64,000 bases of DNA from a virus: positions 1 to 64,000 of the IMG/VR virus record IMGVR_UViG_3300045911_000567, one strand, 5' to 3'. Shown here in pieces: positions 4,889 through 64,000 of this stretch (position 1 is its first letter; every line of letters begins with the position of its first letter). The position numbers and the translations under genes are program-made. The notes below the pieces were generated by a model. That model had not been told where the DNA came from. It ran no database searches and was given only the letters and a program-made list of their open reading frames with translations.

Positions 4889-5181
4889 CAGACGTCTCCA
4901 TTTTCTATAGATTTTATCACTTCATATGGTGTAATAGCAGTCCTATAAAATTCCTGCTTACAACATTCTAGCATACCTATGATTGCATTATAGTCTTCGT
5001 AGCGCAAATTATTTCCTGTTGCCTTTCTGTATGTATCTTTGATTAGCTTGGTCAGAATGAAATTTAAATTTCCTGGAATTTCATTTTTCGGCGATTGTGA
5101 TACGCTATCAGATAATTGATTCACTGAGTCGAGAAAGGGTTCTCTATTTTCTTTTCTTATATACGGCATCATCGTCTCCAT
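4888..5181 (-). CDS. Conserved phage protein (DUF6899-like)
   Basis: MPYI..GNLNF..RYEDYNAIIGMLECCKQEFYR..PYE..K..NGDV pattern. Confidence 0.7.
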   Translation of the reverse strand: METMMPYIRKENREPFLDSVNQLSDSVSQSPKNEIPGNLNFILTKLIKDTYRKATGNNLRYEDYNAIIGMLECCKQEFYRTAITPYEVIKSIENGDV

Positions 5182-5836
5182 AATTATCTTTCAATGCTTC
5201 ACAGATATAATCGGCAATCGTCTTTTTTGCAGAATAGATATTTTTACTAGGCAGTCCTAGTCTATCCAACATCATTCTGGAATAATAAGTTGCCGATTCT
5301 TTGCCAGCAAAATCAACCGACTCAAACGTAAAGCTGCGGTGATTTTTCATTTTGGTGTAGTAATCGCCGATAGCGTTAGCTTTCCATTTGCCTATTACAA
5401 CTTCTACACCCAGTCCTGGATACCTTCCAGAGGCGGTTCCTAACAATACTGCGGTGTCACTATTATAAGATTTAAACAAGACTGAATCTTGATCATATTT
5501 TTTCCCTGCTTTGAATAGAAAATCTTTCAGTTTACCTGTTGATTCTGGATTGGCAGCAATCAAAAACGATTTTTCAGCAACAGGCCTCTTGTTTCCTTTT
5601 CCGTCATCCTCGATATAGTATCCAGCTACAGGAACAAATCCAAATCCTGCTGACCGAATGTCATTCGCGAGTGCTTTAGTATTAAATTCGTTGCGCCTCT
5701 TTGCTTCTTCTGCTGTCTCGGTATCTTTCTTTCCTCTCGAAGCAGAAATCATTCCTATACTCTTTTCTTGAGTATATTGGTACATCCTTGCCAGATTTAT
5801 TTCATTCAGTAAATGTTTTTTAAATTTCTTGAGCAT
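5144..5836 (-). CDS. Conserved T4-like protein with capsid-targeting-like N-terminus
   Basis: MLKKFKKHLLNE; GMISASRG..GFGF..GYYIE..EKSF..KYDQDSVL; ATAAATA late motif at 5870-5876. Confidence 0.7.
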   Translation of the reverse strand: MLKKFKKHLLNEINLARMYQYTQEKSIGMISASRGKKDTETAEEAKRRNEFNTKALANDIRSAGFGFVPVAGYYIEDDGKGNKRPVAEKSFLIAANPESTGKLKDFLFKAGKKYDQDSVLFKSYNSDTAVLLGTASGRYPGLGVEVVIGKWKANAIGDYYTKMKNHRSFTFESVDFAGKESATYYSRMMLDRLGLPSKNIYSAKKTIADYICEALKDNYGDDDAVYKKRK

Positions 5837-19497: not shown

Positions 19498-20376
19498 TCA
19501 CGTCAACTTTTTATGATCGTCTAATGCTTTTTTTAAGACTTTAATCTCAGATTTGGATATTTCTCCATCGGAAATTATTTTATTGACAGTTTTCAATAGT
19601 TTAAGATAATGGTATTTTTCAAGAAGTTTATAAATTACATTTCCAGGAAGATAACTATTAGTTCCGTATGTTCTTATTTCTTCGGGTGTCAAAGTTTTAT
19701 TATATGCATCTTCGCGTTTGGTCTTTATGTCATCATAAATCGCACTAATTTCTTCTGCATTTAGTTCCATATCTTCGATTGTCTGCTTTAACCTCTGTTT
19801 CAGTTGTCTTGCATCTGCATCGGTCATATTTTTTATGGACTCGTAATCGAATAAAACATCATCTAATCGATCTGCAAGTAAATCGATTGCTTTAACTTTG
19901 TCGGCGTAATCTTGTAAATATAACTCTATCGAAAATTTTATATCTTTCGGTTTTTTGATAAACTCGTTATTTTTAATATCAAAAGATGCGTCAGCGGCTT
20001 CTGTTTTTCTTCTTTCATATTCTTTTGCATCATTCATAATAAAATAGTTAATGGGATAGGGCGTATTTTTATATTTTTTCCCTGATATTTTAGAAGTTAT
20101 TTTTTTACTCTTCTCTAAGTCTTTTTCGGCTACAAGAACCGTGACATCTATATCACTATTTTCATCATATCTAAGAGTTAATATACTTCCAAGAAGTACA
20201 TAGTCAAGTACCTTAACTTCAGCTACCAGCGGAGCCATTCTTTTAAGAATTTCATCACGTAAGTCGTCTTTTAATTTTGGATTAACCGCATTGGGGTCTT
20301 CGAATATATCAGGCGAAAGACTATCTTGCCTTTGACTTATTATAGACTCTTCGATGTAAGTACTAAATCGTTTCAT
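19498..20376 (-). CDS. Pol-beta-superfamily nucleotidyltransferase with capsid-targeting N-terminus
   Basis: LLGSI..YDENSDIDVTV motif; starts MKRFSTYIEE; CTAAATA at 20393-99. Confidence 0.8.
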   Translation of the reverse strand: MKRFSTYIEESIISQRQDSLSPDIFEDPNAVNPKLKDDLRDEILKRMAPLVAEVKVLDYVLLGSILTLRYDENSDIDVTVLVAEKDLEKSKKITSKISGKKYKNTPYPINYFIMNDAKEYERRKTEAADASFDIKNNEFIKKPKDIKFSIELYLQDYADKVKAIDLLADRLDDVLFDYESIKNMTDADARQLKQRLKQTIEDMELNAEEISAIYDDIKTKREDAYNKTLTPEEIRTYGTNSYLPGNVIYKLLEKYHYLKLLKTVNKIISDGEISKSEIKVLKKALDDHKKLT

Positions 20377-20500
20377 TTTTCCGGTCGCACTATATTTAGC
20401 TAAAGGGGAGAGCGAGCTACGGGCACTTAAATGCACTATTGCGGCTGAATATCAGATGTCGATTTCTAAATGCTATATTACTAATAGGACATCTTCACAA

Positions 20501-37913: not shown

Positions 37914-38255
37914 TTAATGAACCTGCGATGATTGGTGTTTTCCAAAAATAACACCCCTACAGAAAGCATGTAAGTCTTTGCCGTTTTCTGTTATTGCACA
38001 TATGAATATCGCAGTTTCGAATATTCTCGATTTCAATAAATCAACATCAGATTCATGCCCGAATGTTTTTCTAAATGTCACGGATATTAAATCATTGAGG
38101 CGAAATGTTAGGGTGTCTAGATCTTCTGATATGATTGATGTTATTGCTGCCACAAAAGGATAAATTTTTCCAACTTCCAGGCCACCGGCTTCTATAAGTT
38201 CAGTTGAAAGGATTTTTGTTAATTGCTTACTCATTTTTTTTATCATAGCTAACAA
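37914..38255 (-). CDS. Hypothetical protein
   Basis: ~106-113-aa ORF. Confidence 0.6.
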   Translation of the reverse strand: MLAMIKKMSKQLTKILSTELIEAGGLEVGKIYPFVAAITSIISEDLDTLTFRLNDLISVTFRKTFGHESDVDLLKSRIFETAIFICAITENGKDLHAFCRGVIFGKHQSSQVH

Positions 38256-39014
38256 TTATCTTTCTAGCAAATAATCTTTAAATTTCTTTTTAGGAAGTTT
38301 CTTAACTATCGGTTCTTGCAAACCAGCAACGCCGCCGGCGCCTACTGAATTAGCAGGAATATCTTCTTCAACTTTTTTGAGTCTTGTATAATAATCCGGC
38401 TTTTCTTTCAGGTGTGCCAGCACTATTTTGGCTAAATCTTCTTTTGTATTCGCTACACGAAGTTCTGGATCTGTGCTATGTTCTTGTTCAACCTCCAGCC
38501 CTTGTCTAAATTGATTCAAATCGACTTTGGTCCAATCCACGCCCAATCTATTGCCTATTTCCTGTGCTTCCTGCTTTGAAATTTTTTCTATCTTTTCTTC
38601 AAGTAGTGCTAAATGATTAAGAGCAGAAATATTTTCTTGTAGTAGTTGCAGTTGATTTGTAAAACTGGAATATAATAGATCAATGTCTTCATATTTTTCG
38701 AGATTATTCTCTTCTTTCAGCAAAAATAGTGCGGCGGCGAAATTTGCAAGACGAGTCCTGCCAGCCGGTAGTTTAGATATGATTTTCTTGAGGTTGAGAA
38801 TTATCACATCAAAAATAGTAAATGATAATTTTTCTTCGCTTTTGGTGAGAGTGCTGCGTTTTCTGAGTATATTTCCTTCGGCATCTATAATACCAAATTT
38901 ATATGCCTTCCAATTCGAAAAAGGCGTAGCAAGTCGTTTTATAAACTGATAAATCAAAAAAGAATCGAATACAACCGACTCGTTAATTAATTCCGATTTG
39001 AGTTTATTCCTCAT
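38256..39014 (-). CDS. Conserved T4-like protein with DUF5661-like domain
   Basis: FIKRLATPF..W.AYK.GIID.EG; GLEVEQEH..KIVLAHLKE.PDYYTRL; EDIPANSVGAGG. Confidence 0.75.
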   Translation of the reverse strand: MRNKLKSELINESVVFDSFLIYQFIKRLATPFSNWKAYKFGIIDAEGNILRKRSTLTKSEEKLSFTIFDVIILNLKKIISKLPAGRTRLANFAAALFLLKEENNLEKYEDIDLLYSSFTNQLQLLQENISALNHLALLEEKIEKISKQEAQEIGNRLGVDWTKVDLNQFRQGLEVEQEHSTDPELRVANTKEDLAKIVLAHLKEKPDYYTRLKKVEEDIPANSVGAGGVAGLQEPIVKKLPKKKFKDYLLER

Positions 39015-40272: not shown

Positions 40273-40830
40273 TTAAAATCCTAATTTTCTTAACTTATTT
40301 ATCACTTCCGATGCCGATGTCCTTTGTATTGCTAGACCGCCGGCTGTTCTCCATTCATTGCAATTCTTATCGTAATCATCTATCAGTAGGTTTGGTTCGC
40401 CCTTGACATTTTTTGCAAATAACTGTTTTTGTGAGCGAGAAACCAAATGAATATTATCTACATTATTTATTCCAAGATGATCCTTAACCCATTGAAGTTT
40501 GTCGCGTTCGCAAATGTCTCTATTCATTGAAGTTGTTGCACTCAAGATGTTTGGTTTGTATTTTTTGACTGCTTCCCATAATTTTTTGCCGTCTCTTAAC
40601 CATCTCAAAGTCTGCCAAAAGTTTGGTTGTTGATATATGATTGACCAGCGAATATCATTAGCTTCGGTTTCGGAATATTCCTTAAGCCAAAATGAATGAT
40701 GAAATTTCGGATAACCAAATTTTTCTAAAATTTGATCTGCGCCTCTAGTAAAATCAACCAAGGTTTCGTCTAAATCCAGATATATTGTGGGCAAAGATTT
40801 GTCAATAATATAAGATTTCAAACTTTTCAT
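40273..40830 (-). CDS. HAD-family 5'(3')-deoxyribonucleotidase-like phosphatase
   Basis: IYLDLDETLVDF, ILSA, K..W, LLIDD..N..W..AGG.AI. Confidence 0.85.
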   Translation of the reverse strand: MKSLKSYIIDKSLPTIYLDLDETLVDFTRGADQILEKFGYPKFHHSFWLKEYSETEANDIRWSIIYQQPNFWQTLRWLRDGKKLWEAVKKYKPNILSATTSMNRDICERDKLQWVKDHLGINNVDNIHLVSRSQKQLFAKNVKGEPNLLIDDYDKNCNEWRTAGGLAIQRTSASEVINKLRKLGF

Positions 40831-40844
40831 TATCTTAAATCAAA

Positions 40845-41444
40845 CTAATCTCTGTCATTTCCTTTGAATTGAGGCTGCTCATGCGGAAGATCGCCCATAG
40901 CATCAATTAATAAAGGAAGTAGAACAGATTCATAATTTTCATACACACTTAATATATCATATAGATCCTCTTTTCTCTTTGCTCCCGGAAGGTGAGGCGC
41001 AGGAATTATTTCAGGCATTCCTGTAGCATATGTCACTAGTGCTCTATAGGCTGTTCTTTCTGAATCGGGTCTAATATCGTCCGCTGCTCGTTGTGTCAAA
41101 TCTATATCGGAAATAATGTCGATGTGTTTCGGTAGATTCCTATCTCTCATTGTCACAGCAGATGCCGGTTCTTTGGAAGCGACCTGACACGATTCATTTA
41201 CTGATGCTAGTTCGGATTCTTTTTCCTGTTCTGACTCAAGCTGCTCGTTTTCTTCTGCCTCATCTTTTGCTTCGGTTTCTCCTAGTGTAGGTAAGCCAGA
41301 ATGGGCTGCGGTTTTTTTTGCTTTGCTAGTGCAGTCACACCCTTGTTCGTGCACAGTGCACGTTTGTTCGGATAAACTTTTGTTCAATATACTGGAAACC
41401 GCATCAATTAATGATTGTGATATACCTAAATCTTTGAATGACAT
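40845..41444 (-). CDS. Acidic late protein, possibly head-associated
   Basis: AGGAG SD; CTAAATA at 41469-75; SLIDAV..IL; several L/V-x-E sites. Confidence 0.65.
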   Translation of the reverse strand: MSFKDLGISQSLIDAVSSILNKSLSEQTCTVHEQGCDCTSKAKKTAAHSGLPTLGETEAKDEAEENEQLESEQEKESELASVNESCQVASKEPASAVTMRDRNLPKHIDIISDIDLTQRAADDIRPDSERTAYRALVTYATGMPEIIPAPHLPGAKRKEDLYDILSVYENYESVLLPLLIDAMGDLPHEQPQFKGNDRD

Positions 41445-41480
41445 ATTTCTCTCCTTGCAGTAGTATATTATTTAGTTATT

Positions 41481-41693
41481 TTAATCATCTGGCGATTTTT
41501 TCTTAGATTTATAATCGGTTTGATAAAATCCCGATCCCTTGAAAATTGGGGCAGATACGACTGAAAGAACTTTAGCTATCTCAGATTGACAATACGGACA
41601 ATTTTTGATCGCGGCGTCTGAGATTTTTTGCTGTATCTCAAGAATTCCACAGGACTTACATTCGTATTCATATAACGGCATATTGTCACTCAC
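41481..41693 (-). CDS. FmdB-family zinc-ribbon protein
   Basis: MPLYEYECKSCG..CPYC..FKGSGFYQTDY. Confidence 0.88.
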   Translation of the reverse strand: MSDNMPLYEYECKSCGILEIQQKISDAAIKNCPYCQSEIAKVLSVVSAPIFKGSGFYQTDYKSKKKSPDD

Positions 41694-42115
41694 ATCACTT
41701 TTTTGACGGATCCGTTCGGTAGATAATGATATACTGCAACTTTTTGATTGAATCTTAATGCTTTCCTAATATTATTAGCTTTCATCACCGCACCAAGTTT
41801 CGTTTTTTCTTTTTCTGAAAAGAGTTGCTTTCCTCCTGCATCGTATACCACAACCACGAACAGATCGGATTGTTCTTGTACTACACTACCTAATTGTTCT
41901 GGATCGGCTTGCTCATTTGCTCTCTTCTCTGCATCTTTTCGTGCTTGATCCTGCTTGCGCTGTGCTTCTTTGGCGGCGAAATCTGCTCGTCGAGCTTGTT
42001 CTATCTCTCGGGTGTGTTTTTTTTGTAGTTGTTCTTTCTCTCGTTTCTGACGTTCCCGTACTTTTTGAGCTTGGGACTCAAACTCTTCTTGTAAGTATTT
42101 TCTAAATCGTTTCAT
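41690..42115 (-). CDS. Putative internal head protein
   Basis: MKRFRKYLQE; charged coiled coil; CTAAATA at 42173-79. Confidence 0.65.
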   Translation of the reverse strand: MKRFRKYLQEEFESQAQKVRERQKREKEQLQKKHTREIEQARRADFAAKEAQRKQDQARKDAEKRANEQADPEQLGSVVQEQSDLFVVVVYDAGGKQLFSEKEKTKLGAVMKANNIRKALRFNQKVAVYHYLPNGSVKKVM

Positions 42116-43112
42116 AAATTTTTTTTCTAGTGCTATAACGAGATTTCTTTGCTAGATTCAATAATTCTCTTATATTTAGAGAAACGACATGAGCTATAAC
42201 TTTTTGTTTTTCATCTATATTTCTGAGTGCAAATAGTTGATGATGACCATCCAGAATATAATCATCTGACGAAACTACAAACGGCTTTTTAGCATCTGGA
42301 TGTTTTTTGAAATGCTCATATTTCTGTTTAACTTTTTGTAGATTTATTTCTGATTGAGTTGGCTTCAATTTGTCCAGTCGAATGTATTTTTTCGAGACTA
42401 AAATGCCCTGTTCTTTCAGTTCATCCAAAAAAGAGGATATGTCCCTCTCCGCAATCTGTGGCATCTCATTTCTGGTAAAACCTAATCCTTTTATTTTATG
42501 AATAATAGACTCGGCGATTTTCATACTCTTTTTCAATTCGTCGAACATTTCTCTGGCAAATCTTTCTGATAGACCAGATAGAGTCATCGAATAAAATGAT
42601 GCAAAATCATTTCGTTTGACTGCATCTCGCACTCTGGAAGCCGAAAACCCTTCCACTCCTTCGGCATCGGGATCTCTCAAACCAGCCGAGATAACCGCAA
42701 AATTTTTAATCGGCAGTCTTTTACTCTTATCTGGATGGTTTATGTATTTCTTTATCAAAGTATCGAATTCGGATACTCTATCGGCTCCAACTACCATCAC
42801 CAAATTTGCGTAGCCAATTGAATGTAGATATTGTATCACATCGAAGATTGTTTTGATTTGACTATTTGCTACGATATATTTCTTATGATTCGAAATTCCC
42901 ATAGCCAGATATTTTATTTTCTGTTGATATGATAGGGGATTCTTTCTAATATCTTGAGTCTGACTTAAAAAAATAAATGGTGTGGCATTTTCTTTTCTGG
43001 AAACCAACAGCATATTTTCAATAACTTTCTCATGTCCTCTATGAGGAGGATTCATTCTACCGAAGGTAAATACTGCTTTTTTACCCGATAAAATTTCACT
43101 TAAAAATTTCAT
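42102..43112 (-). CDS. HxGH cytidylyl/nucleotidyltransferase fused to a ParB/Srx-like domain
   Basis: FGRMNPPHRGH, NPL, VVGADR, SAG.RDPD..SASRVR; C-terminal LKPTQ..VSSDDYILDGHH. Confidence 0.85.
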   Translation of the reverse strand: MKFLSEILSGKKAVFTFGRMNPPHRGHEKVIENMLLVSRKENATPFIFLSQTQDIRKNPLSYQQKIKYLAMGISNHKKYIVANSQIKTIFDVIQYLHSIGYANLVMVVGADRVSEFDTLIKKYINHPDKSKRLPIKNFAVISAGLRDPDAEGVEGFSASRVRDAVKRNDFASFYSMTLSGLSERFAREMFDELKKSMKIAESIIHKIKGLGFTRNEMPQIAERDISSFLDELKEQGILVSKKYIRLDKLKPTQSEINLQKVKQKYEHFKKHPDAKKPFVVSSDDYILDGHHQLFALRNIDEKQKVIAHVVSLNIRELLNLAKKSRYSTRKKIYETI

Positions 43113-43114
43113 TA

Positions 43115-43657
43115 TTAATCTTTTACTATCGCGTCGTAATAGTTATGTCTTAGTTCGTGTTTTAGTAGATCGCTGTCTCTGATAATATCTCGTAAAACTA
43201 ATTCAGCATCGCCGTTCTGGAGAGAAAATAGTAAAATTTTATTCGAATCTTTAGTTTGTTTAAGCATCTTGTTTATTGTTGAAAGGTCGAATCCATATTC
43301 TCTCAACTTATCTTTCTTGATTGCAGGAAGATTGGGATAAATTTTTACAGATTCTTTGAGTGAAACATCATTGGACTCGGAGAAACTCGCCGATGCTAAA
43401 TCTGATACATTATATAATATATGAGATGGTTCAACGCCGTGCGATTTTACTATATGTTCTACTGCGGCTCTCAACGAAGAAAATCTTTCATTCTTATTGG
43501 TTACATAACGTCCCGATGGTCTGTGGTATGCTACTGCACCAACACGGGCTTTATTAACGTAAACTGCTGCAAATGCAACAGAACGATTTGATGCCAGCCT
43601 TTCTAGTTTGACCACTGCACCTGACGACTCTTTAAGGTATGTGTTAAATTTTTTCAT
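43115..43657 (-). CDS. Putative internal head protein
   Basis: MKKFNTYLKE; CTAAATA at 43664-70. Confidence 0.65.
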   Translation of the reverse strand: MKKFNTYLKESSGAVVKLERLASNRSVAFAAVYVNKARVGAVAYHRPSGRYVTNKNERFSSLRAAVEHIVKSHGVEPSHILYNVSDLASASFSESNDVSLKESVKIYPNLPAIKKDKLREYGFDLSTINKMLKQTKDSNKILLFSLQNGDAELVLRDIIRDSDLLKHELRHNYYDAIVKD

Positions 43658-43666
43658 ATACTATAT

Positions 43667-44398
43667 TTAGTTTGCTTGTTGCTTATATAAAACTTTGCTT
43701 ATTTTACCTAAATCTTCAATATTCGACGTTTTTGTGTCGTAGTTTGCCACAGTTTTATATGACCACTTCATATTAACTTTAAATCTATGGTGTAACTTAG
43801 TATCAATAACAACAATCATGCCTTCTTTTAGTTTAGGAATAACCTTGCCAGATGTAAATAAATTTATGTGCTCAGAAGCGGGCTGCATGATTTCATTTTG
43901 TTTAGATAAAGGAAATAATGCTATAAAGTAATTGTCTATGTTCTCTTTTCTATAAATGAAGGCAATCATTGTTTTACTTGGAAGATGGTCATATTCATCG
44001 GGGTGGCCTGTATGATCTATTGGAATATCCATCCCTAGTTTTTGACTAAACTCTTTTCTATATTTCTGAAATACAGGACCATGCATACCATAATCACTAA
44101 TGCTATTTTTAGCGATAAAGGCATGTATCATTTCATGAGCCACAATCTTAGTCAAAGTTTCTTCTGTAAAATTCAGGGGAGCGATCACGATTTCGATTGT
44201 TTCAGGCAAAACAACTCTGCTCTGTTTGTATATTTTATATGTAGTCAATCCCATTTGTTGTTTAGGAAGTTTACCGAATTTGATAGGGATTTCTTTGAGG
44301 GCACCATTAAAAAGTTTAGCATCAAGCTCTCGGTAAATCTTCTGAAGAGTAGCATTATCTTGGACTTTTTCTGTTATGAATTGCTTGAATTTTTTCAT
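43667..44398 (-). CDS. SprT-like zinc metalloprotease with capsid-targeting N-terminus
   Basis: MKKFKQFITE; LFNG.L..HEMIH..HGPVF; CTAAATA at 44406-12. Confidence 0.8.
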   Translation of the reverse strand: MKKFKQFITEKVQDNATLQKIYRELDAKLFNGALKEIPIKFGKLPKQQMGLTTYKIYKQSRVVLPETIEIVIAPLNFTEETLTKIVAHEMIHAFIAKNSISDYGMHGPVFQKYRKEFSQKLGMDIPIDHTGHPDEYDHLPSKTMIAFIYRKENIDNYFIALFPLSKQNEIMQPASEHINLFTSGKVIPKLKEGMIVVIDTKLHHRFKVNMKWSYKTVANYDTKTSNIEDLGKISKVLYKQQAN

Positions 44399-46401
44399 AA
44401 TAGTCTATTTAGTACCTCTGGTACTGCCAAACCTTCGTTTCTTAGTGCTTCATCTGTTCCTTTTAGGATAGATTTAACCGCCTCTGGATAGATAAAATCT
44501 GGAGACAACACCGCCGAGAGAACTTTTTCGAATACCAGTAAATCTGAAGGAGAAAATTTAGGACCAAATAATAATTCTGTTATGATTTTTGGTGTAGTAG
44601 ATATGAAAGCCGACGATTTTGTCTGAAAATTTTTTGTTATGCCTCTTTTACCTTCTCTGGACTGGGTGGAAAAGAATAATCCCTTAGAATAATCTAATAG
44701 TAAGCGCTGTTGCTCAATTGGCTGTCCAGAATTTGATTTTGTTATTCTGAGTGCCACAAACTTTGCTATTTGATTCAATAATATATTTCTATAAATTCCT
44801 TTAAATTCACTTTCTGATGTTGCCGGACCATAATAAATCCATTCGCTATAATCCAAATTATTAACTAACATCAAATCAACCTGTACCGATTTATTGTGTT
44901 GTTTTTTATTTATGTTTACAATCGGAAATGCGAAAGACACGATTCCAAGACCTCTACTATCTTTAACAGAAGCAGAAATTCGTTTAATCTTAGAAACAAC
45001 AAAATCAAACAACTCTTCTCTATTAAAGGATTTTGTACTCAAAATAGATTTAGCTGATATTGCTATGTCGATGTCACCAGAAGATTCTCCTGGCAATTTT
45101 TTTCCCGCCGAACCCAGTACCCTGAGATCGCTTTTTTCTATATTTAAAACAGAAGAAACGGCGGATATGGCTGCTTTTATCGTCTCGGCTGCATTCTCTT
45201 GATCTAATCGCGAGACTCCTATTATTGCGTTTCCTCCTTCATTGAGTGAGGCATGGAAAGAAAAATTCAGTCGAGAGAATTCAAGTCTATCCACCAATTT
45301 TATCACACGACCAGATCTGCTATTAAGAGCAACAAAACCTTCCTGTCCCGTAACTCTGAAACCATCGCCGGTTTGAATGAAGGTGCTCATAGAAGATATT
45401 TGATTTAATTTTTTAAGAATGATCGATTTTAGTTCTACTATGTAAAGTTGATATTTTAACAACTCTACCAAACTTGATTGATTATCAACGAGAAATTTTA
45501 TATGTCTTTCTTTTCCGTATGCAGACCTATACTTTGATGAAACATACTCAATCAGGCCAGGAATATCGGAAACTGTCATTTGCTTGCCCGTTCTCACTAA
45601 TATATTGCTATACGCCTTGACGTGGGTAGATATAGGAGAGTTAGATAATTCATCTGCGAATGACCGGATACTTTTTAGTGATTGTTTTGCCTTTTCTATT
45701 AATGAATTTAAATACGAAATTTCGGTTTTATTAAATTGAACGCCGGAACTTACATTTTTTAATGTTGCATCGTCAAACCAAACATCTTTTATTTTTTTCA
45801 GTTTGGTTATATCAGGGCTGAAGCTGGCTTTCATTTTGCTCATCTCGGAACCCTTATATTCGGTGTGCCATACTATTCCCAACTGGGCAGAGAGTATGTC
45901 TTTTGCTAAGGGACTGTTGAGTGGAACGCCATACGTTAGGGTATTTGGTTTAAATAGCACCATTTCTTGACCATCTATTGAGTCCAGAAAAAGACTACTT
46001 TTAGTGAAGATTACATCACCCTGTAGGACCCCTTTTATTCCCAGAGCCGGAAGAGTTGCCAGAGCAATTTTTAATATCTCTTGTACCCTGTCACTATTAG
46101 CATGATTTAACTCTATATCTTTTGGCGTAAAATTCAATTTTGGATTATTAGATAAAACAGCTTTTGTTCCAACAAAAAATTTCTTTGTTTTGGGATCAAT
46201 TCCGGCAAAGATAGCAAGGGAGCCATCCCATTTAGTTGTAATCTTCGAATCAGAAACAGATCCCTCTAAATTTTTAATGATATCTGATAGAACATCGAGA
46301 GCATATTTTCCTCCTCGGGCACCATCATTAATGATGTAGTCCTCTACATGCTCAATGTGGGTATTTTTTGCTTCCGAGATGTATTGAAAAAACTTTTTCA
46401 T
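44395..46401 (-). CDS. DUF6267-like ligase-fold protein fused to a Pol-beta nucleotidyltransferase
   Basis: MKKFFQYISE; NTHIEH.ED, TTKWDG, QGD, EGFV, KLVDRLEFS; then LNEGGN..LGSAGKK..SGDIDIA..VQVDLM. Confidence 0.75.
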   Translation of the reverse strand: MKKFFQYISEAKNTHIEHVEDYIINDGARGGKYALDVLSDIIKNLEGSVSDSKITTKWDGSLAIFAGIDPKTKKFFVGTKAVLSNNPKLNFTPKDIELNHANSDRVQEILKIALATLPALGIKGVLQGDVIFTKSSLFLDSIDGQEMVLFKPNTLTYGVPLNSPLAKDILSAQLGIVWHTEYKGSEMSKMKASFSPDITKLKKIKDVWFDDATLKNVSSGVQFNKTEISYLNSLIEKAKQSLKSIRSFADELSNSPISTHVKAYSNILVRTGKQMTVSDIPGLIEYVSSKYRSAYGKERHIKFLVDNQSSLVELLKYQLYIVELKSIILKKLNQISSMSTFIQTGDGFRVTGQEGFVALNSRSGRVIKLVDRLEFSRLNFSFHASLNEGGNAIIGVSRLDQENAAETIKAAISAVSSVLNIEKSDLRVLGSAGKKLPGESSGDIDIAISAKSILSTKSFNREELFDFVVSKIKRISASVKDSRGLGIVSFAFPIVNINKKQHNKSVQVDLMLVNNLDYSEWIYYGPATSESEFKGIYRNILLNQIAKFVALRITKSNSGQPIEQQRLLLDYSKGLFFSTQSREGKRGITKNFQTKSSAFISTTPKIITELLFGPKFSPSDLLVFEKVLSAVLSPDFIYPEAVKSILKGTDEALRNEGLAVPEVLNRLL

Positions 46402-46410
46402 ATAACATAT

Positions 46411-46417
46411 TATTTAG
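46411..46417 (-). promoter_or_regulatory. Late promoter core CTAAATA (representative of a recurring NTAAATA motif)
   Basis: The same motif lies just upstream of late-type genes at 5870, 9755, 19478, 20393, 23881, 40296, 41469, 42173, 43664, 44406, 52721, 54245 (-) and 10091, 12436, 23056 (+). Confidence 0.7.
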
Positions 46418-60768: not shown

Positions 60769-62366
60769 GGTTTTCTAAAAATAAAAATCGGCTCATATTT
60801 AAAATATCCTTCATCTCCAGAACCAGACAATTTCACCTTACAGAAATTTTTCATCATAGGATCTCCGGTCTCTGGGTCAAGTCTGTTGCGTCCAGGCATT
60901 CTAGACAATACCATTTTTAGTGTTTCAATATGCTGCATACCCAACGATTTTAGGTAATCTATAGAATCTTGTTCTAATGGAAGAATATCCTTCTTACCAA
61001 ACTTAACATCGGCTATATTCCAAGCGATATAGCCTCCTGGTTTTAACCAATCAAAAGCGGTTTTTAGTGTTCGTTTTAAAAAATTATCTCTCCATGAATC
61101 ATATGTATCAAACTTAATCGCACTCTGTGCAGGATCGTCACTATACAGTTCCTTACAAAAATAGGCTGGACTCGTAAACACTAAATCTAGATTTCCTTTG
61201 TATTTTTGAAAATTGTCTTGAAGATGCATTTCTTCCGAACCACATTGATAGATTTCATATGTATTAAGTGGCGCACAGAATGGACCAGATCTATATGTTT
61301 GAGTATTATAAAAATCTGCAAGCTCGTGATATTTTGTTCTTCCTGGTGTCGTTGTATGATCTGGATTAGGATCGGTTCCTATATAATGAATTCCCCTGTC
61401 TTGACTTACTGCCATGGCTCCTAATATTCTTCCTCCCCAGCCAGAAGAAGGATCCCAGACTATAGCTTTTGTATTTGGCTTAGTGTATCTTTCGTAAATT
61501 AACTTTGCCGTAAGTGGAGGAAAGTTAACTGCTTGCTGACATACCGAAACTCTAAATGCTCTGAGTCCTGCTGGAAAAATTCGCTGACCTTTCTTAAAAA
61601 GTCTTATTCTATATTGGGTTGCCTCCGGAAAATATTCAAGAATTGTTTTGCATCTGGGTCTAATCAAATCTCCGCTAGTCTCTAATTCTTCTTTACTTAT
61701 AGATAGACATGTTATTTCTCGCAATTCATCAATATACCCAGAATAAAAATTTTCTTCGGTTTTTGGCTCCAAGAAATAATCGTATTCACCTCCTGAATAA
61801 TACCGTTCAAAAATTTCAATCCATCTGAGACCAATATTTTCATGTTCGGCTATGAGATATGTTTTCTTATATTCATGTAAATCCGTTTTATCAGGATGAA
61901 AAGTTCTAACGGGAGAAGCATAAACATAAAAAGAATCTCTCTTGAAATGTCTCCTAGCATAAGTAATCATCTTGTTGAGTAGGGCGGGATCCTTAAAGTG
62001 GTCATATATAGATAAACCCGCATTTACTTGAGTTGTATAATTTATTTTTGTTTTCATCATAGTAGGAAACCATTCGTTAGCGGCATTACCTACTATGCTC
62101 GTGTTCCGAATACAATCTATAGTATTGGTTAATTCGTCTTTAACCAAAAACTTATGAACAGGAAAAGATTCTAACTGATTAAATTGGTCAATTATCTCGG
62201 GTTCATCTAATCCTAATCTAGGAGGAAGACCATAGTTATCCCATAGATCAACTACAACAGCTCGCATTTCTGCGACCCATGCACAAAATTCTGCATCTGA
62301 CATCCACAACAATTCTTCAAATGTTTTATTGACAGAATGCTCTATGAGTCTATTGTTTCTTGGCAT
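60765..62366 (-). CDS. SAM-dependent DNA methyltransferase-like protein
   Basis: NFPPLTAK, WDPSSGWGGR (SAM binding), FTSPAYF..E.Y, LKPGG..WNIAD, KYEPIF.F.K. Confidence 0.85.
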   Translation of the reverse strand: MPRNNRLIEHSVNKTFEELLWMSDAEFCAWVAEMRAVVVDLWDNYGLPPRLGLDEPEIIDQFNQLESFPVHKFLVKDELTNTIDCIRNTSIVGNAANEWFPTMMKTKINYTTQVNAGLSIYDHFKDPALLNKMITYARRHFKRDSFYVYASPVRTFHPDKTDLHEYKKTYLIAEHENIGLRWIEIFERYYSGGEYDYFLEPKTEENFYSGYIDELREITCLSISKEELETSGDLIRPRCKTILEYFPEATQYRIRLFKKGQRIFPAGLRAFRVSVCQQAVNFPPLTAKLIYERYTKPNTKAIVWDPSSGWGGRILGAMAVSQDRGIHYIGTDPNPDHTTTPGRTKYHELADFYNTQTYRSGPFCAPLNTYEIYQCGSEEMHLQDNFQKYKGNLDLVFTSPAYFCKELYSDDPAQSAIKFDTYDSWRDNFLKRTLKTAFDWLKPGGYIAWNIADVKFGKKDILPLEQDSIDYLKSLGMQHIETLKMVLSRMPGRNRLDPETGDPMMKNFCKVKLSGSGDEGYFKYEPIFIFRKP

Positions 62367-62985
62367 CTTTCTTTTCTATTTTCTTTTTAAGAGTCGGCTT
62401 TTTTTCTTTCTTCGGTGCTGGGAATTGAAGAAGTCCTAATGTTTGCATTTCAGAAAAATAAGGAATACCTACATGATCTACTATTTTGTGTTTTCGTGCT
62501 TCTTCTGCCGAAAGAAACCAGTCGATGTGTTTTCTTTTTTCAACTTCTTTTTTGAAATAATCTGTGGGTTGATTGCATTTTTCTGATAGAAGTTTATATA
62601 AAACTTCGTTTAGTCTCTCGGCTTCTCTGACATCTGCTTTAAGATCCTCAATTTTTCCCCACGACACCTTACCTGCATCATGAATCATCACAGTAGAATA
62701 TTTCCCTATAAATCTCAAGCCAGGATTTCCGCTGGCAAGAAGTATACTACCGCATGACATTGCTTTTCCTAATGCTATGGTGGCTTTTGGTATTTCAACA
62801 CTTTCCATTATGTCGAGCATTGCCATCAGTGAATATATTTCTCCACCAAAAGAATCGATGAAAATTGGGATGCAAGGAAGATCGGAATGTTTCAGACGAT
62901 CAAAATCTTCTTTGAATTTCTTAACGGCATCCTCTGTAAATTCATTAACAAGAATATATGGTTGATGTTTTCTGGGGTCTTCCAT
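62350..62985 (-). CDS. clpP: ClpP-family protease
   Basis: IDSFGG, GKAMSCG (Ser), MIH (His), DWFLSAEEA (Asp). Confidence 0.9.
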   Translation of the reverse strand: MEDPRKHQPYILVNEFTEDAVKKFKEDFDRLKHSDLPCIPIFIDSFGGEIYSLMAMLDIMESVEIPKATIALGKAMSCGSILLASGNPGLRFIGKYSTVMIHDAGKVSWGKIEDLKADVREAERLNEVLYKLLSEKCNQPTDYFKKEVEKRKHIDWFLSAEEARKHKIVDHVGIPYFSEMQTLGLLQFPAPKKEKKPTLKKKIEKKDAKKQ

Positions 62986-63037: not shown

Positions 63038-64000
63038 TTATTTTTCTGAATACAAGAACACCAGATTGCCGCTATCATATAGGCGATAGTATCCATTCTT
63101 TTTCATATTTTCCTCTTCTGATAATAATGGATCATAGTTCTGTAGCTTGAATGTAAGTTTCTTCTTTTGGTATTGGTATCTACTAATAAGTTTTCCTCCA
63201 ACGAGATATTTGTAATTTGGTTGAGTTTTTCCTAATAATTTAAATCCCAATTTTTTATATAAATTTCCATCTGAATATGTTCTGTCTGCATAAGACACAA
63301 CGGTCGATGGCTGCCTTCTGATAAAGGTTTTAAACAACCTAGACGCTCCTGCAATGACTCTATATCCGCATTTCGTTGAGAATCTAGTCAACTCAAAATC
63401 GGCATCTTTATTCCACCTAGACTTAGAAAACGTCATTACTGCATAAATTTCTTCGCTATCATCTACCAGAGCATAAGCAAATCTATATCCAAGGGAACCA
63501 TATAGATGATTTTCGCGAAGAAAATTCTGTATTTTAAGAAAATCTAGGTCATCTCTGACTGTTAGGTTTCTTGCATAGATGGGTTTAGTTTTTCCTAATT
63601 TATTCAGGATCATTGATTTTATGATATGCTCTTTGCTGCGCCAGTCATGGTCAAAAATATGAATTAGTTGAATATTCTTGTTCTCACATAGTTCAGTCTT
63701 ATTCATATGCATAAATTTGCTTCTGAATTTTGTGGTATGATAATACACACCGTTACACTCTATTGCAAGATTCAAGTCAGGAAGATATATGTCCAATTCT
63801 TTTGGTGGTATTATATTGCGGGCATTTCTAAGGATTTTTCCGCTATAGTTATCGGCAATAAATTCAAATACTTCAACTTCGAATCCGTTCGTTCTTTCTA
63901 TTTTTTCTATACCGAAATAATTTTTCAGTTTGCTTCCTAACCAAGAATCCGATACTTCATATTCTCGTGCTATTCTACTGATCGATTTTCCATTTTTTAT
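63038..64000 (-). CDS. Hef-like homing endonuclease (PD-(D/E)xK plus GNAT-like domain), 5'-truncated
   Basis: Frame open to the window edge; ELDIYLP..LAIECNGVYYH..K..C..I.LIHIF; ELTRF..GASRL..SYADR..LY..LGF..P.Y..YDSG. Confidence 0.8.
   Translation of the reverse strand: MKNGKSISRIAREYEVSDSWLGSKLKNYFGIEKIERTNGFEVEVFEFIADNYSGKILRNARNIIPPKELDIYLPDLNLAIECNGVYYHTTKFRSKFMHMNKTELCENKNIQLIHIFDHDWRSKEHIIKSMILNKLGKTKPIYARNLTVRDDLDFLKIQNFLRENHLYGSLGYRFAYALVDDSEEIYAVMTFSKSRWNKDADFELTRFSTKCGYRVIAGASRLFKTFIRRQPSTVVSYADRTYSDGNLYKKLGFKLLGKTQPNYKYLVGGKLISRYQYQKKKLTFKLQNYDPLLSEEENMKKNGYYRLYDSGNLVFLYSEK

Follow-up and report, generated by a model that had tools for sequence, protein, structure and literature searches.

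Candidate T4-type capsid-targeting leaders on a block of enzymes encoded by a metagenomic T4-like phage

The IMG/VR record IMGVR_UViG_3300045911_000567 is a linear viral contig of 76.9 kb, the first 64 kb of which (the window) are analysed here. On the minus strand of the window, downstream of the gp41 gene, lies a block of eight close-packed genes running from 46401 down to 40273, and the products of most of them begin with variants of one short leader, similar to the sequence by which phage T4 addresses its internal proteins to the head. IMG/VR classes the contig as a fragment, and CheckV puts its completeness at 47%. It carries a T4-like gene set (gp23-type capsid protein, gp22-type scaffold, gp19 tail tube, gp55 late sigma factor, UvsW and UvsY), encodes a DnaB/gp41 helicase as well and, from N-terminal similarity, appears to have genes for a clamp-loader subunit and gp46/47-type nucleases. 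Among named phages, Kyanoviridae cyanophages and Melnitz, a phage of Methylophilales, stand nearest to it. These relatives are marine (cyanophages, a methylophage), yet the public runs in which the contig occurs are labelled hot-spring and microbial-mat metagenomes; among the runs listed for it no RNA run was found.

The leader, M-K-x-F/L-x-x-Y/F-I/L-x-E/D, stands at the start of six genes, and looser variants stand at the start of two more. Five of the eight block genes have the full motif and a sixth the short form MKFLSE, whilst the two tagged genes outside the block start at 20376 (motif) and at 5836 (the variant MLKKFKKHLLNE, one residue longer). An initial annotation of the window had quoted these N-termini, and all of them were confirmed on the minus strand. 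It had left the comparison with the genomic background to be made, and this comparison finds the matches concentrated at the starts of open reading frames (ORFs): in a six-frame scan of the whole contig the strict pattern K.[FL]..[YFH][IL].[ED] occurs 12 times, six of them at ORF residue 2, and a looser core gives eight N-terminal matches where the internal rate would predict 0.8 (Poisson P about 2e-6). The motif is on none of the identifiable replication and recombination genes (gp41, gp43, clamp, clamp loader, gp46/47, UvsW and UvsY). Synonymous codons vary within the leaders (TAC, TTC and TAT; ATC, ATA, CTT, TTA and ATT; GAA and GAG) while the residues stay, which argues for selection on the peptide and not on the RNA.

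The same pattern is seen beyond this phage. An alignment-based scan of viral contigs (a single-sequence scan had given one relative only) brought together 80 related viral-metagenome loci, with 900 kb and 1185 ORFs, and in these the leader is N-terminal in 125 of the 1185 ORFs against 11 internal matches, the tagged ORFs covering many cargo families. When ten further leader-bearing families of these loci were run against Pfam, an adenylate kinase was the sole identification; it lies on a related viral contig, at L091:2954-3541 (plus strand; L-numbers denote related loci), has the leader MKTFRDFIFE and matches with E = 1e-38.

The capsid-targeting sequence (CTS) of the T4 internal proteins was reportedly described by Mullaney and Black in 1996. 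In the T4 record NC_000866, ipII and ipIII start MKTYQEFIAE and ipI starts MKTFKEF..., and the window leaders align in register with those of ipII and ipIII, with an aromatic or hydrophobic residue at positions 4 and 7, I or L at 8 and E at 10. According to a review (PMC9026906), the first ten residues of the T4 CTS suffice for head incorporation, positions 4 and 7 serve targeting and positions 8 and 10 processing, gp21 cleaves after L/I-x-E, and a leader with Asp at position 10 still targets but is no longer cleaved; the same review already raises the idea that T4-like phages use the CTS to load a variety of proteins. The targeting residues, F (L in one case) at 4 and Y or F at 7, are found in six window proteins, and the cleavage motif, L or I at 8 with Glu at 10, in five. 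The leader of a HAD-type phosphatase in the block ends I-I-D, with Asp at position 10, and this protein is therefore predicted to be loaded but left uncut. In the capsid protein aligned to T4 gp23 the cleavage block LTE|A is invariant, here and in the cyanophage S-CREM2, which argues for a protease of the same specificity as gp21. The leader itself is modelled as disordered, with a predicted local distance difference test score (pLDDT) below 50 over residues 1-16.

The first gene of the block (44395..46401, minus strand, as are all window genes described below) encodes a probable polyprotein of 668 amino acids (aa), in which the leader MKKFFQYISE (residues 1-10) is followed by a DUF6267 ligase-like domain (about 11-381) and a domain like the family-X DNA polymerases (PolX-like; 389-668). 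Between both domains lies the junction L386-N-E388|G389-G-N-A (45235..45243, minus strand), a predicted prohead-protease site. The DUF6267 domain (Pfam E = 4e-91) has the ligase/capping motifs I, IV and V as K57-W-D-G60, E354-G-F-V and K368, and K57, D59, G60, E354, G355 and K368 are invariant among 30 homologues (alignment A1), so that on sequence motifs the predicted ligase-like identity is convincing. Its model (pLDDT 79.7, with the leader disordered) matches some 15 ligases, of RNA and of DNA, with Z 5.1-6.4 and 148-188 residues aligned, which is below the confidence level of the tool; these matches came from the exhaustive structure aligner only, with RNA ligases best and tied with DNA ligases, and Foldseek of the model against the PDB gave nothing at E <= 0.001. 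For the PolX-like domain (model pLDDT 95.6) Foldseek finds Pol beta at E = 2e-6, and VIA Z scores of 9.6-10.8 over 164-199 aligned residues are obtained for Thermus PolX, TdT, Pol beta, African swine fever virus (ASFV) Pol X and Pol lambda, against Z <= 8.4 over about 100 residues for nucleotidyltransferases outside PolX. The matches cover the palm and thumb architecture. Residues G430-S431, D443 and D509 are invariant among 57 homologues and D445 nearly so, which gives the GS motif and the three catalytic carboxylates. The 8-kDa lyase and fingers (helix-hairpin-helix) domains are lacking, the alignment spanning Pol beta residues about 142-335 only, and on the model the domain would work like a minimal PolX, without being put forward as a canonical Pol beta/lambda member. 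What the initial annotation had called a ligase-fold/nucleotidyltransferase fusion can thus be refined to a KxDG ligase-like domain joined to a family-X polymerase-like domain.

Homologues of both domains begin in ways that mark the leader as a separable module. For DUF6267 the databases hold more than 6000 homologues, and most of the top 120 open with MKFSEYITE and then a conserved K-N-x-H-L-E-H block, while about ten of these 120 open right at that block, without the leader, as do the proteins of S-PM2 and P-HM2. The PolX-like domain is N-terminal in 109 homologues, of which 19 start M-GGNA and 77 have a prefix, with a modal length of 10, that ends in [LIMVF]-x-E before GGNA. In fused homologues [LIMVF]-x-E stands directly ahead of GGNA at 17 of 19 junctions (by regular expression), and two further fusions, KLNE|GGNM and VVTE|GGNI, fit by eye. 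Judging from these sequences, anything upstream of the PolX-like domain would be set off by a protease-type site, and the predicted mature end would be the natural start of the untagged forms. The L-N-E|GGNA junction, taken with this behaviour of the homologues, therefore leads us to read the 668-aa protein as a polyprotein probably cut twice in the head. Elsewhere, HxGH cytidylyltransferase, DUF6267 and PolX-like domains are joined in single proteins of 900-1800 aa, and this co-occurrence suggests joint action; in the database proteins P0121, P0138, P0188, P0195, P0236 and P0262 an HxGH nucleotidyltransferase and other domains are combined with a PolX-like domain that has L-x-E before its GGNA. 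Long proteins of the P0121 type may be polyvalent-type forms of the same cargo, some of them with the leader at their N-terminus.

The other tagged proteins are likewise mostly recognisable enzymes. In the 243-aa protein (43667..44398) the leader MKKFKQFITE precedes a SprT-like zinc metalloprotease (PF10263 from residue 18, E = 3.5e-9, 36.9 bits against a cut-off of 25.6), with its HExxH site as HEMIH at residues 88-92. The 180-aa protein (43115..43657) has the leader MKKFNTYLKE and a domain without an assigned family, as neither Pfam nor PHROGs gave a match and the protein atlas returned scores below 0.8, weak leads only. In the 336-aa protein (42102..43112) MKFLSE is followed by an HxGH cytidylyl/adenylyltransferase (HRGH at 24-27, SASRVR at 157-162 for SxxxxR; PHROG 'cytidyltransferase', E = 6e-50; PF01467, 23 bits against a cut-off of 21), a linker with KIAE (198-201) and a ParB/Srx-like domain (PF08857, 26.4 bits against 23.6; DGHHQ at 288-292). 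From its sequence this last domain is likely to belong to the ParB/Srx fold family, its catalytic competence being uncertain, and it has matches in unrelated phages to proteins with virion, structural or DarB-like annotations. In the 141-aa protein (41690..42115) the leader MKRFRKYLQE is followed by a helix of high charge, rich in K/E/Q/R, and then by a small domain at the C-terminus; the protein has no family match, and a relative in locus L073 has the leader MKNFRAFIHE. Within the block, a 70-aa FmdB-type zinc-ribbon protein (41481..41693; PF09723, E = 2.4e-13) has no leader, and a 199-aa acidic protein (40845..41444) has no canonical one. The block ends with a 185-aa NT5C/HAD phosphatase (40273..40830; PF06941 from residue 16, E = 3.4e-7; DLDET at 19-23), in which the leader variant is MKSLKSYIID; its relatives carry the canonical MKSFCTYLKE.

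Outside the block, the leader MKRFSTYIEE belongs to a 292-aa Pol-beta-type nucleotidyltransferase (19498..20376), which Pfam recognises weakly as Polbeta/NTP_transf_2 (E about 2e-4 to 7e-4) and which has GS...DxD at residues 63-77, and MLKKFKKHLLNE to a 230-aa S-adenosylmethionine (SAM) lyase (5144..5836; PF23780, E = 3.8e-11). Pfam and PHROGs thus bear out the domains that the initial annotation had assigned (SprT-like, HxGH nucleotidyltransferase with ParB-like, NT5C/HAD), and the SAM lyase too. A search of PDB chains by sequence with the 668-aa, 336-aa and 292-aa proteins gave nothing usable. The PolX-like domain and the 292-aa nucleotidyltransferase were considered as close paralogues, and this was rejected, BLASTP between them finding no significant similarity.

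A late-promoter-like core, CTAAATA, lies at 46411..46417 (minus strand), where 16 nt separate it from the ATG of the 668-aa gene, and similar cores lie on the same strand at 44406-44412, 43664-43670, 42173-42179, 41469-41475 and 20393-20399. In three tagged genes (cores 46411-46417, 44406-44412 and 43664-43670) CTAAATA is 13-16 nt ahead of the ATG with no Shine-Dalgarno sequence, and mRNAs starting from these cores would be nearly leaderless. The core is also found ahead of the 141-aa, 199-aa and 292-aa genes, at 31 nt for the 199-aa gene, which has a core of its own, and at 23 nt for the 292-aa gene. Upstream of the capsid, scaffold and tail-tube genes [TA]TAAATA is found at 34-46 nt, the capsid and scaffold genes having a Shine-Dalgarno sequence (AGGAG) and longer untranslated leaders. 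Of the claim that most of the tagged genes have a late-promoter core just upstream, the enrichment stands: TAAATA is present within 60 nt upstream of five of the eight tagged genes and of 12 among the 100 others (Fisher P = 0.002), 17 genes in all with the capsid, scaffold and tail-tube genes among them. In the remaining tagged genes the start abuts or overlaps the upstream gene, and co-transcription is probable. In the literature nothing usable was found on the timing of the cytidylyltransferase transcript.

That these leaders have to do with the virion is indicated independently by relatives. The virion proteome of S-CREM2 comprises 52 of its 221 proteins (PMC10665884). In a six-frame scan of S-CREM2 exactly four ORFs have the leader at their N-terminus, namely ORF6 (SAM hydrolase, MKDFDSFLEE), ORF13 (MKDLHSFLTE), ORF14 (kinase, KRFDAFLTE) and ORF154 (cytidylyltransferase, MKNFSSFLTE), and all four are on the virion list (hypergeometric P = 0.003), with none of them in the structural gene block. 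ORF154 is homologous to the 336-aa protein (E = 1e-20) and ORF6 to the 230-aa protein (E = 3e-17). In S-SCSM1 the virion-detected ORF91, which is NMNAT-like and starts MKSFLQFLKE, matches the 336-aa protein at E = 5e-37; an orthologue of its group, T4-GC190, was detected in S-SM1 virions (PMC3037559), and the S-SSM5 member of the group starts MKKFSAFLTE. Melnitz and the soil phage DLP_6 likewise have the leader on these genes. The cyanophage proteome papers, in the texts searched, note the recurrence of enzymes in virions and make no link to a T4-type CTS, and a literature search for 'capsid targeting sequence' with 'cyanophage' returned only a T4 review.

Some weaker leader-like stretches were also met with. 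The 869-aa ORF12 of S-CREM2 (L004:4705-7314, minus strand), which is virion-detected and annotated as Cas9-like, has L-R-F-A-S-F-M-A-E at residues 17-25, and its annotated start may therefore be too far upstream. A 178-aa ORF just downstream of the gp55 gene, at G000 67384-67920 (minus strand; G000 denotes coordinates on the whole contig), equivalent to L005:5385-5921, begins with the weakly leader-like MKHNMKEFIVD and takes the position of the tagged cytidylyltransferase in S-CREM2. A 252-aa DUF5661 protein (38256-39014, minus strand) ends in a leader-like K-K-F-K-D-Y-L-L-E-R before its stop, and an ORF at 37914-38255 (minus strand) continues in the same frame; internally the protein has N-H-L-A-L-L-E-E ahead of the DUF5661 domain, and a relative at L073:11274-11615 consists of this domain alone with the canonical N-terminal leader MKSFKQHLTE. 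From the sequences, the end of the 252-aa protein could represent a tag at the C-terminus or a leader that was fused or has decayed, or it could be due to chance. Away from the leaders, a ClpP-family protease is encoded at 62350-62985 (minus strand; Pfam E = 5e-27), far from the head genes, with the PHROGs label of head maturation protease. Two large genes like those for homing or HNH endonucleases (phrog_3339, E = 1e-95 to 1e-101) lie at 63038-64000 of the window (minus strand, extending to G000 64549) and at G000 72428-73768 (plus strand, the same as L005:10429-11769), the latter being encoded, between the tail-tube and capsid genes, on the opposite strand.

We put at roughly 0.75 the probability that the leaders function as T4-type signals for capsid targeting and cleavage and that the head carries most of the tagged enzymes. 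The capsid-targeting reading had been offered in the initial annotation, and it is supported by the in-register match to ipII and ipIII, by the tagged homologues in virions and by the nature of the leader as an addition ending in L/I-x-E. For this phage we infer packaging, cleavage, injection and biological role, and the course of events might be as follows. The tagged genes would be transcribed late, from gp55-type promoters, and each protein would attach to the scaffolding core, while the prohead is being assembled, through its aromatic residues at positions 4 and 7. A gp21-type prohead protease would then cut after Glu10, guided by I or L at 8 and E at 10, and the mature enzyme would stay inside the head until its ejection with the DNA; the 668-aa protein would be cut a second time, at L-N-E388|GGNA, and so split into a KxDG ligase-like and a family-X polymerase-like enzyme, whilst the HAD phosphatase would be targeted and not cut. 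Nucleic acids and cofactors would most probably be what the cargo acts on, during the first minutes of an infection: it would heal, fill and seal breaks in the genome as it enters (or in cleaved RNA), and by removing SAM it would blunt restriction or BREX-type defence.

Several points weigh against this interpretation. Packaging in this phage appears well supported, but by proxy, through tagged homologues in the virions of relatives, and the published proteomes record presence in CsCl-purified particles, for which their authors allow that abundant proteins may be carried over. The gp21 protease family (PF03420, Peptidase_S77) has no match on the contig, a 47%-complete fragment. The gp21 gene normally sits upstream of the gp22 scaffold gene, and the contig end falls just upstream of the latter. 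Two of the leaders are weak matches: MKFLSE keeps only the F-L-x-E end and has no counterpart of position 4, and MLKKFKKHLLNE has one extra residue, which shifts the register by one. L/I-x-E is short and common, so that single internal sites such as KIAE carry little weight, and the S-PM2 and P-HM2 orthologues have no leader, so packaging is not universal for these families. As to the enzymes, the evidence for the ligase fold is modest (Z at most 6.4), the active-site Arg of the DGHHR type is replaced by Gln in the 336-aa protein, and both repair and counter-defence are proposed from domain identities only.

That the leader is not a capsid address is very unlikely. It could in principle be a feature of translation initiation on near-leaderless mRNAs, a tag for some other fate (a ClpP-like protease, localisation) or a remnant of module shuffling; the CTAAATA cores 13-16 nt before three ATGs with no Shine-Dalgarno sequence would agree with the first of these, since A/U-rich first codons could aid initiation, and the ClpP-family protease encoded at 62350-62985 with the second. 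Against such readings it tells that residues 4, 7, 8 and 10 are kept while synonymous codons vary, that the motif stops exactly at domain boundaries and leaderless homologues begin at the predicted mature end, that tagged homologues occur in virions and that the motif matches an experimentally defined T4 CTS. If the leaders do mean packaging, it is quite possible that the cargo is mainly a repair kit for the genome of the phage and not a means of counter-defence, directed at damage gathered outside the host or at breaks made at entry, with the HAD phosphatase healing ends, the PolX-like domain filling gaps, the ligase-like domain sealing and the SprT-like protease removing DNA-protein crosslinks. 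The match of the C-terminal domain of the 668-aa protein to PolX palm and thumb, above generic nucleotidyltransferases, its fusion to a KxDG ligase-like domain, and the recurrence of both domains with the cytidylyltransferase in the 900-1800-aa proteins agree with such a kit, as does the fact that in ASFV Pol X and a ligase work as a pair in base-excision repair, that SprT/Spartan proteases clear DNA-protein crosslinks and that T4 Pnkp has a HAD-type 3'-phosphatase. Yet RNA ligases tie with DNA ligases among the best matches, and the substrate of the ligase-like domain could therefore be RNA, the cluster has neither an apurinic/apyrimidinic endonuclease nor a kinase, and the SAM lyase and NMNAT-like enzyme misfit a pure repair role.

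The initial annotation had favoured packaged enzymes that are chiefly counter-defence effectors, acting by removal of SAM against restriction or BREX, by manipulation of NAD or nucleotide signals, by tRNA repair after anticodon nucleases and by proteolysis of defence proteins. We consider this possible too, if slightly less likely. It draws on the packaging of a SAM lyase homologue in S-CREM2, on the anti-restriction function of T4 internal proteins (PMC3012670), on the match of the ParB-like domain to DarB-like, virion or structural proteins of other phages, on the fact that injected 'polyvalent proteins' typically contain domains of the ParB, metalloprotease and nucleotidyltransferase kinds (PMC5512222), and on a ligase fold nearest to that of RNA ligases; against it, no target defence system was identified, the NMNAT assignment goes no further than the family (23 bits, with the cut-off at 21), and the PolX-like fold points to DNA synthesis and not to signalling. 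The SAM lyase is the only cargo with a clear anti-restriction precedent, the ligase, PolX, HAD, SprT and ParB set would fit DNA or RNA break repair at least as well as counter-defence, judging by its domains, and the NMNAT-like enzyme could serve in either role. Genome repair and counter-defence seem about equally likely, and they are not mutually exclusive. It is hard to refrain from going one step further, albeit tentatively: the T4 CTS decapeptide might be a portable address across the T4 superfamily, from coliphage T4 and the Kyanoviridae to a soil Stenotrophomonas phage and this hot-spring phage, loading here a complete break-repair set (a ligase-PolX polyprotein matured at an internal L-x-E, the HAD phosphatase, the SprT-like protease and the ParB-like domain) that guards or repairs the genome at entry. 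As a whole, this extended proposal is less likely than not.

A CTS and an enzyme cargo (Alt) are textbook T4 biology. T4 IPI, IPII and IPIII (PMC3012670, PMC9026906) share with the proteins described here the ten-residue tag M-K-x-aromatic-x-x-aromatic-I/L-x-E with variable cargo behind it, and in T4, as is predicted for this phage, such proteins are expressed late, cut by the prohead protease after the Glu of L/I-x-E and delivered with the DNA. The T4 proteins are, however, small, non-enzymatic basic proteins or inhibitors, whereas the cargo here consists of enzymes of 140-670 aa, includes a probable two-enzyme polyprotein with an internal L-x-E junction and comes from at least six to eight tagged genes, most of them in one block downstream of gp41. 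Alt, a packaged ADP-ribosyltransferase, is likewise an enzyme that is loaded into the head, undergoes processing by gp21 and, once injected, acts ahead of phage gene expression (PMC5512222, PMC9026906), but with a different propeptide and chemistry, and no ADP-ribosyltransferase was seen in this phage. Also close are the NMNAT-like cytidylyltransferase, SAM hydrolase and kinase of S-SM1, S-SCSM1, S-CBWM1 and S-CREM2 virions (PMC3037559, PMC9602691, PMC10665884), which include homologues of the 336-aa and 230-aa proteins with the same leader and a late promoter core upstream; to these the present phage adds ligase-like, PolX-like, SprT-like and HAD cargo.

The polyvalent proteins and the Dar/DdrB proteins of phage P1 (Iyer et al. 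2017, PMC5512222) have zincin-type protease, ParB-like and Pol-beta nucleotidyltransferase domains too, and are packaged and delivered (predicted or shown). A polyvalent protein is a single polypeptide with 2-15 conflict-related domains, usually a metalloprotease included (PMC5512222), whilst the domains here are spread over separate tagged genes, at most two per protein, with processing predicted to be by the prohead protease at L-x-E and not by an in-built metalloprotease. In phiKZ/SPN3US-like jumbo phages, which are of another lineage, many head-internal proteins are also cut after Glu by a gp21 homologue (PMC9026906), but the cleavage motif is S/A-x-E and no short conserved N-terminal address is known. 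ASFV likewise has a minimal palm-plus-thumb Pol X, without lyase and fingers domains, beside a ligase; it is an animal-virus system and not a fusion, and the likeness is by predicted fold only (5hr9, Z 9.8, 166 residues). What appears to be new is that the CTS is conserved well beyond the T-even phages and stands on enzymes that have been met time and again in cyanophage virions, and, further, the range of tagged families, the polyprotein junctions and the ligase-PolX cargo.

The tagged-protein mechanism is widespread in T4-superfamily phages, and its packaging component can be checked directly with existing proteomic data. If the interpretation given here is correct, a ten-residue motif would suffice to predict the injected proteins of T4-like phages, including abundant ocean cyanophages and pelagiphage relatives, and the repeated reports of NMNAT-like enzymes, kinases and a SAM hydrolase in cyanophage virions would be explained. 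The prohead protease would then also mature enzyme polyproteins, and the natural short tags would be on offer for loading foreign proteins into T4-type capsids of non-coli phages. DUF6267 ligase-like, minimal PolX, SprT and HAD proteins would act before any phage gene is expressed, and DNA-repair enzymes carried in the virion would be a new function for phage internal proteins. Were the leader indeed a portable address, sequence alone could tell which proteins are injected by thousands of uncultured phages.

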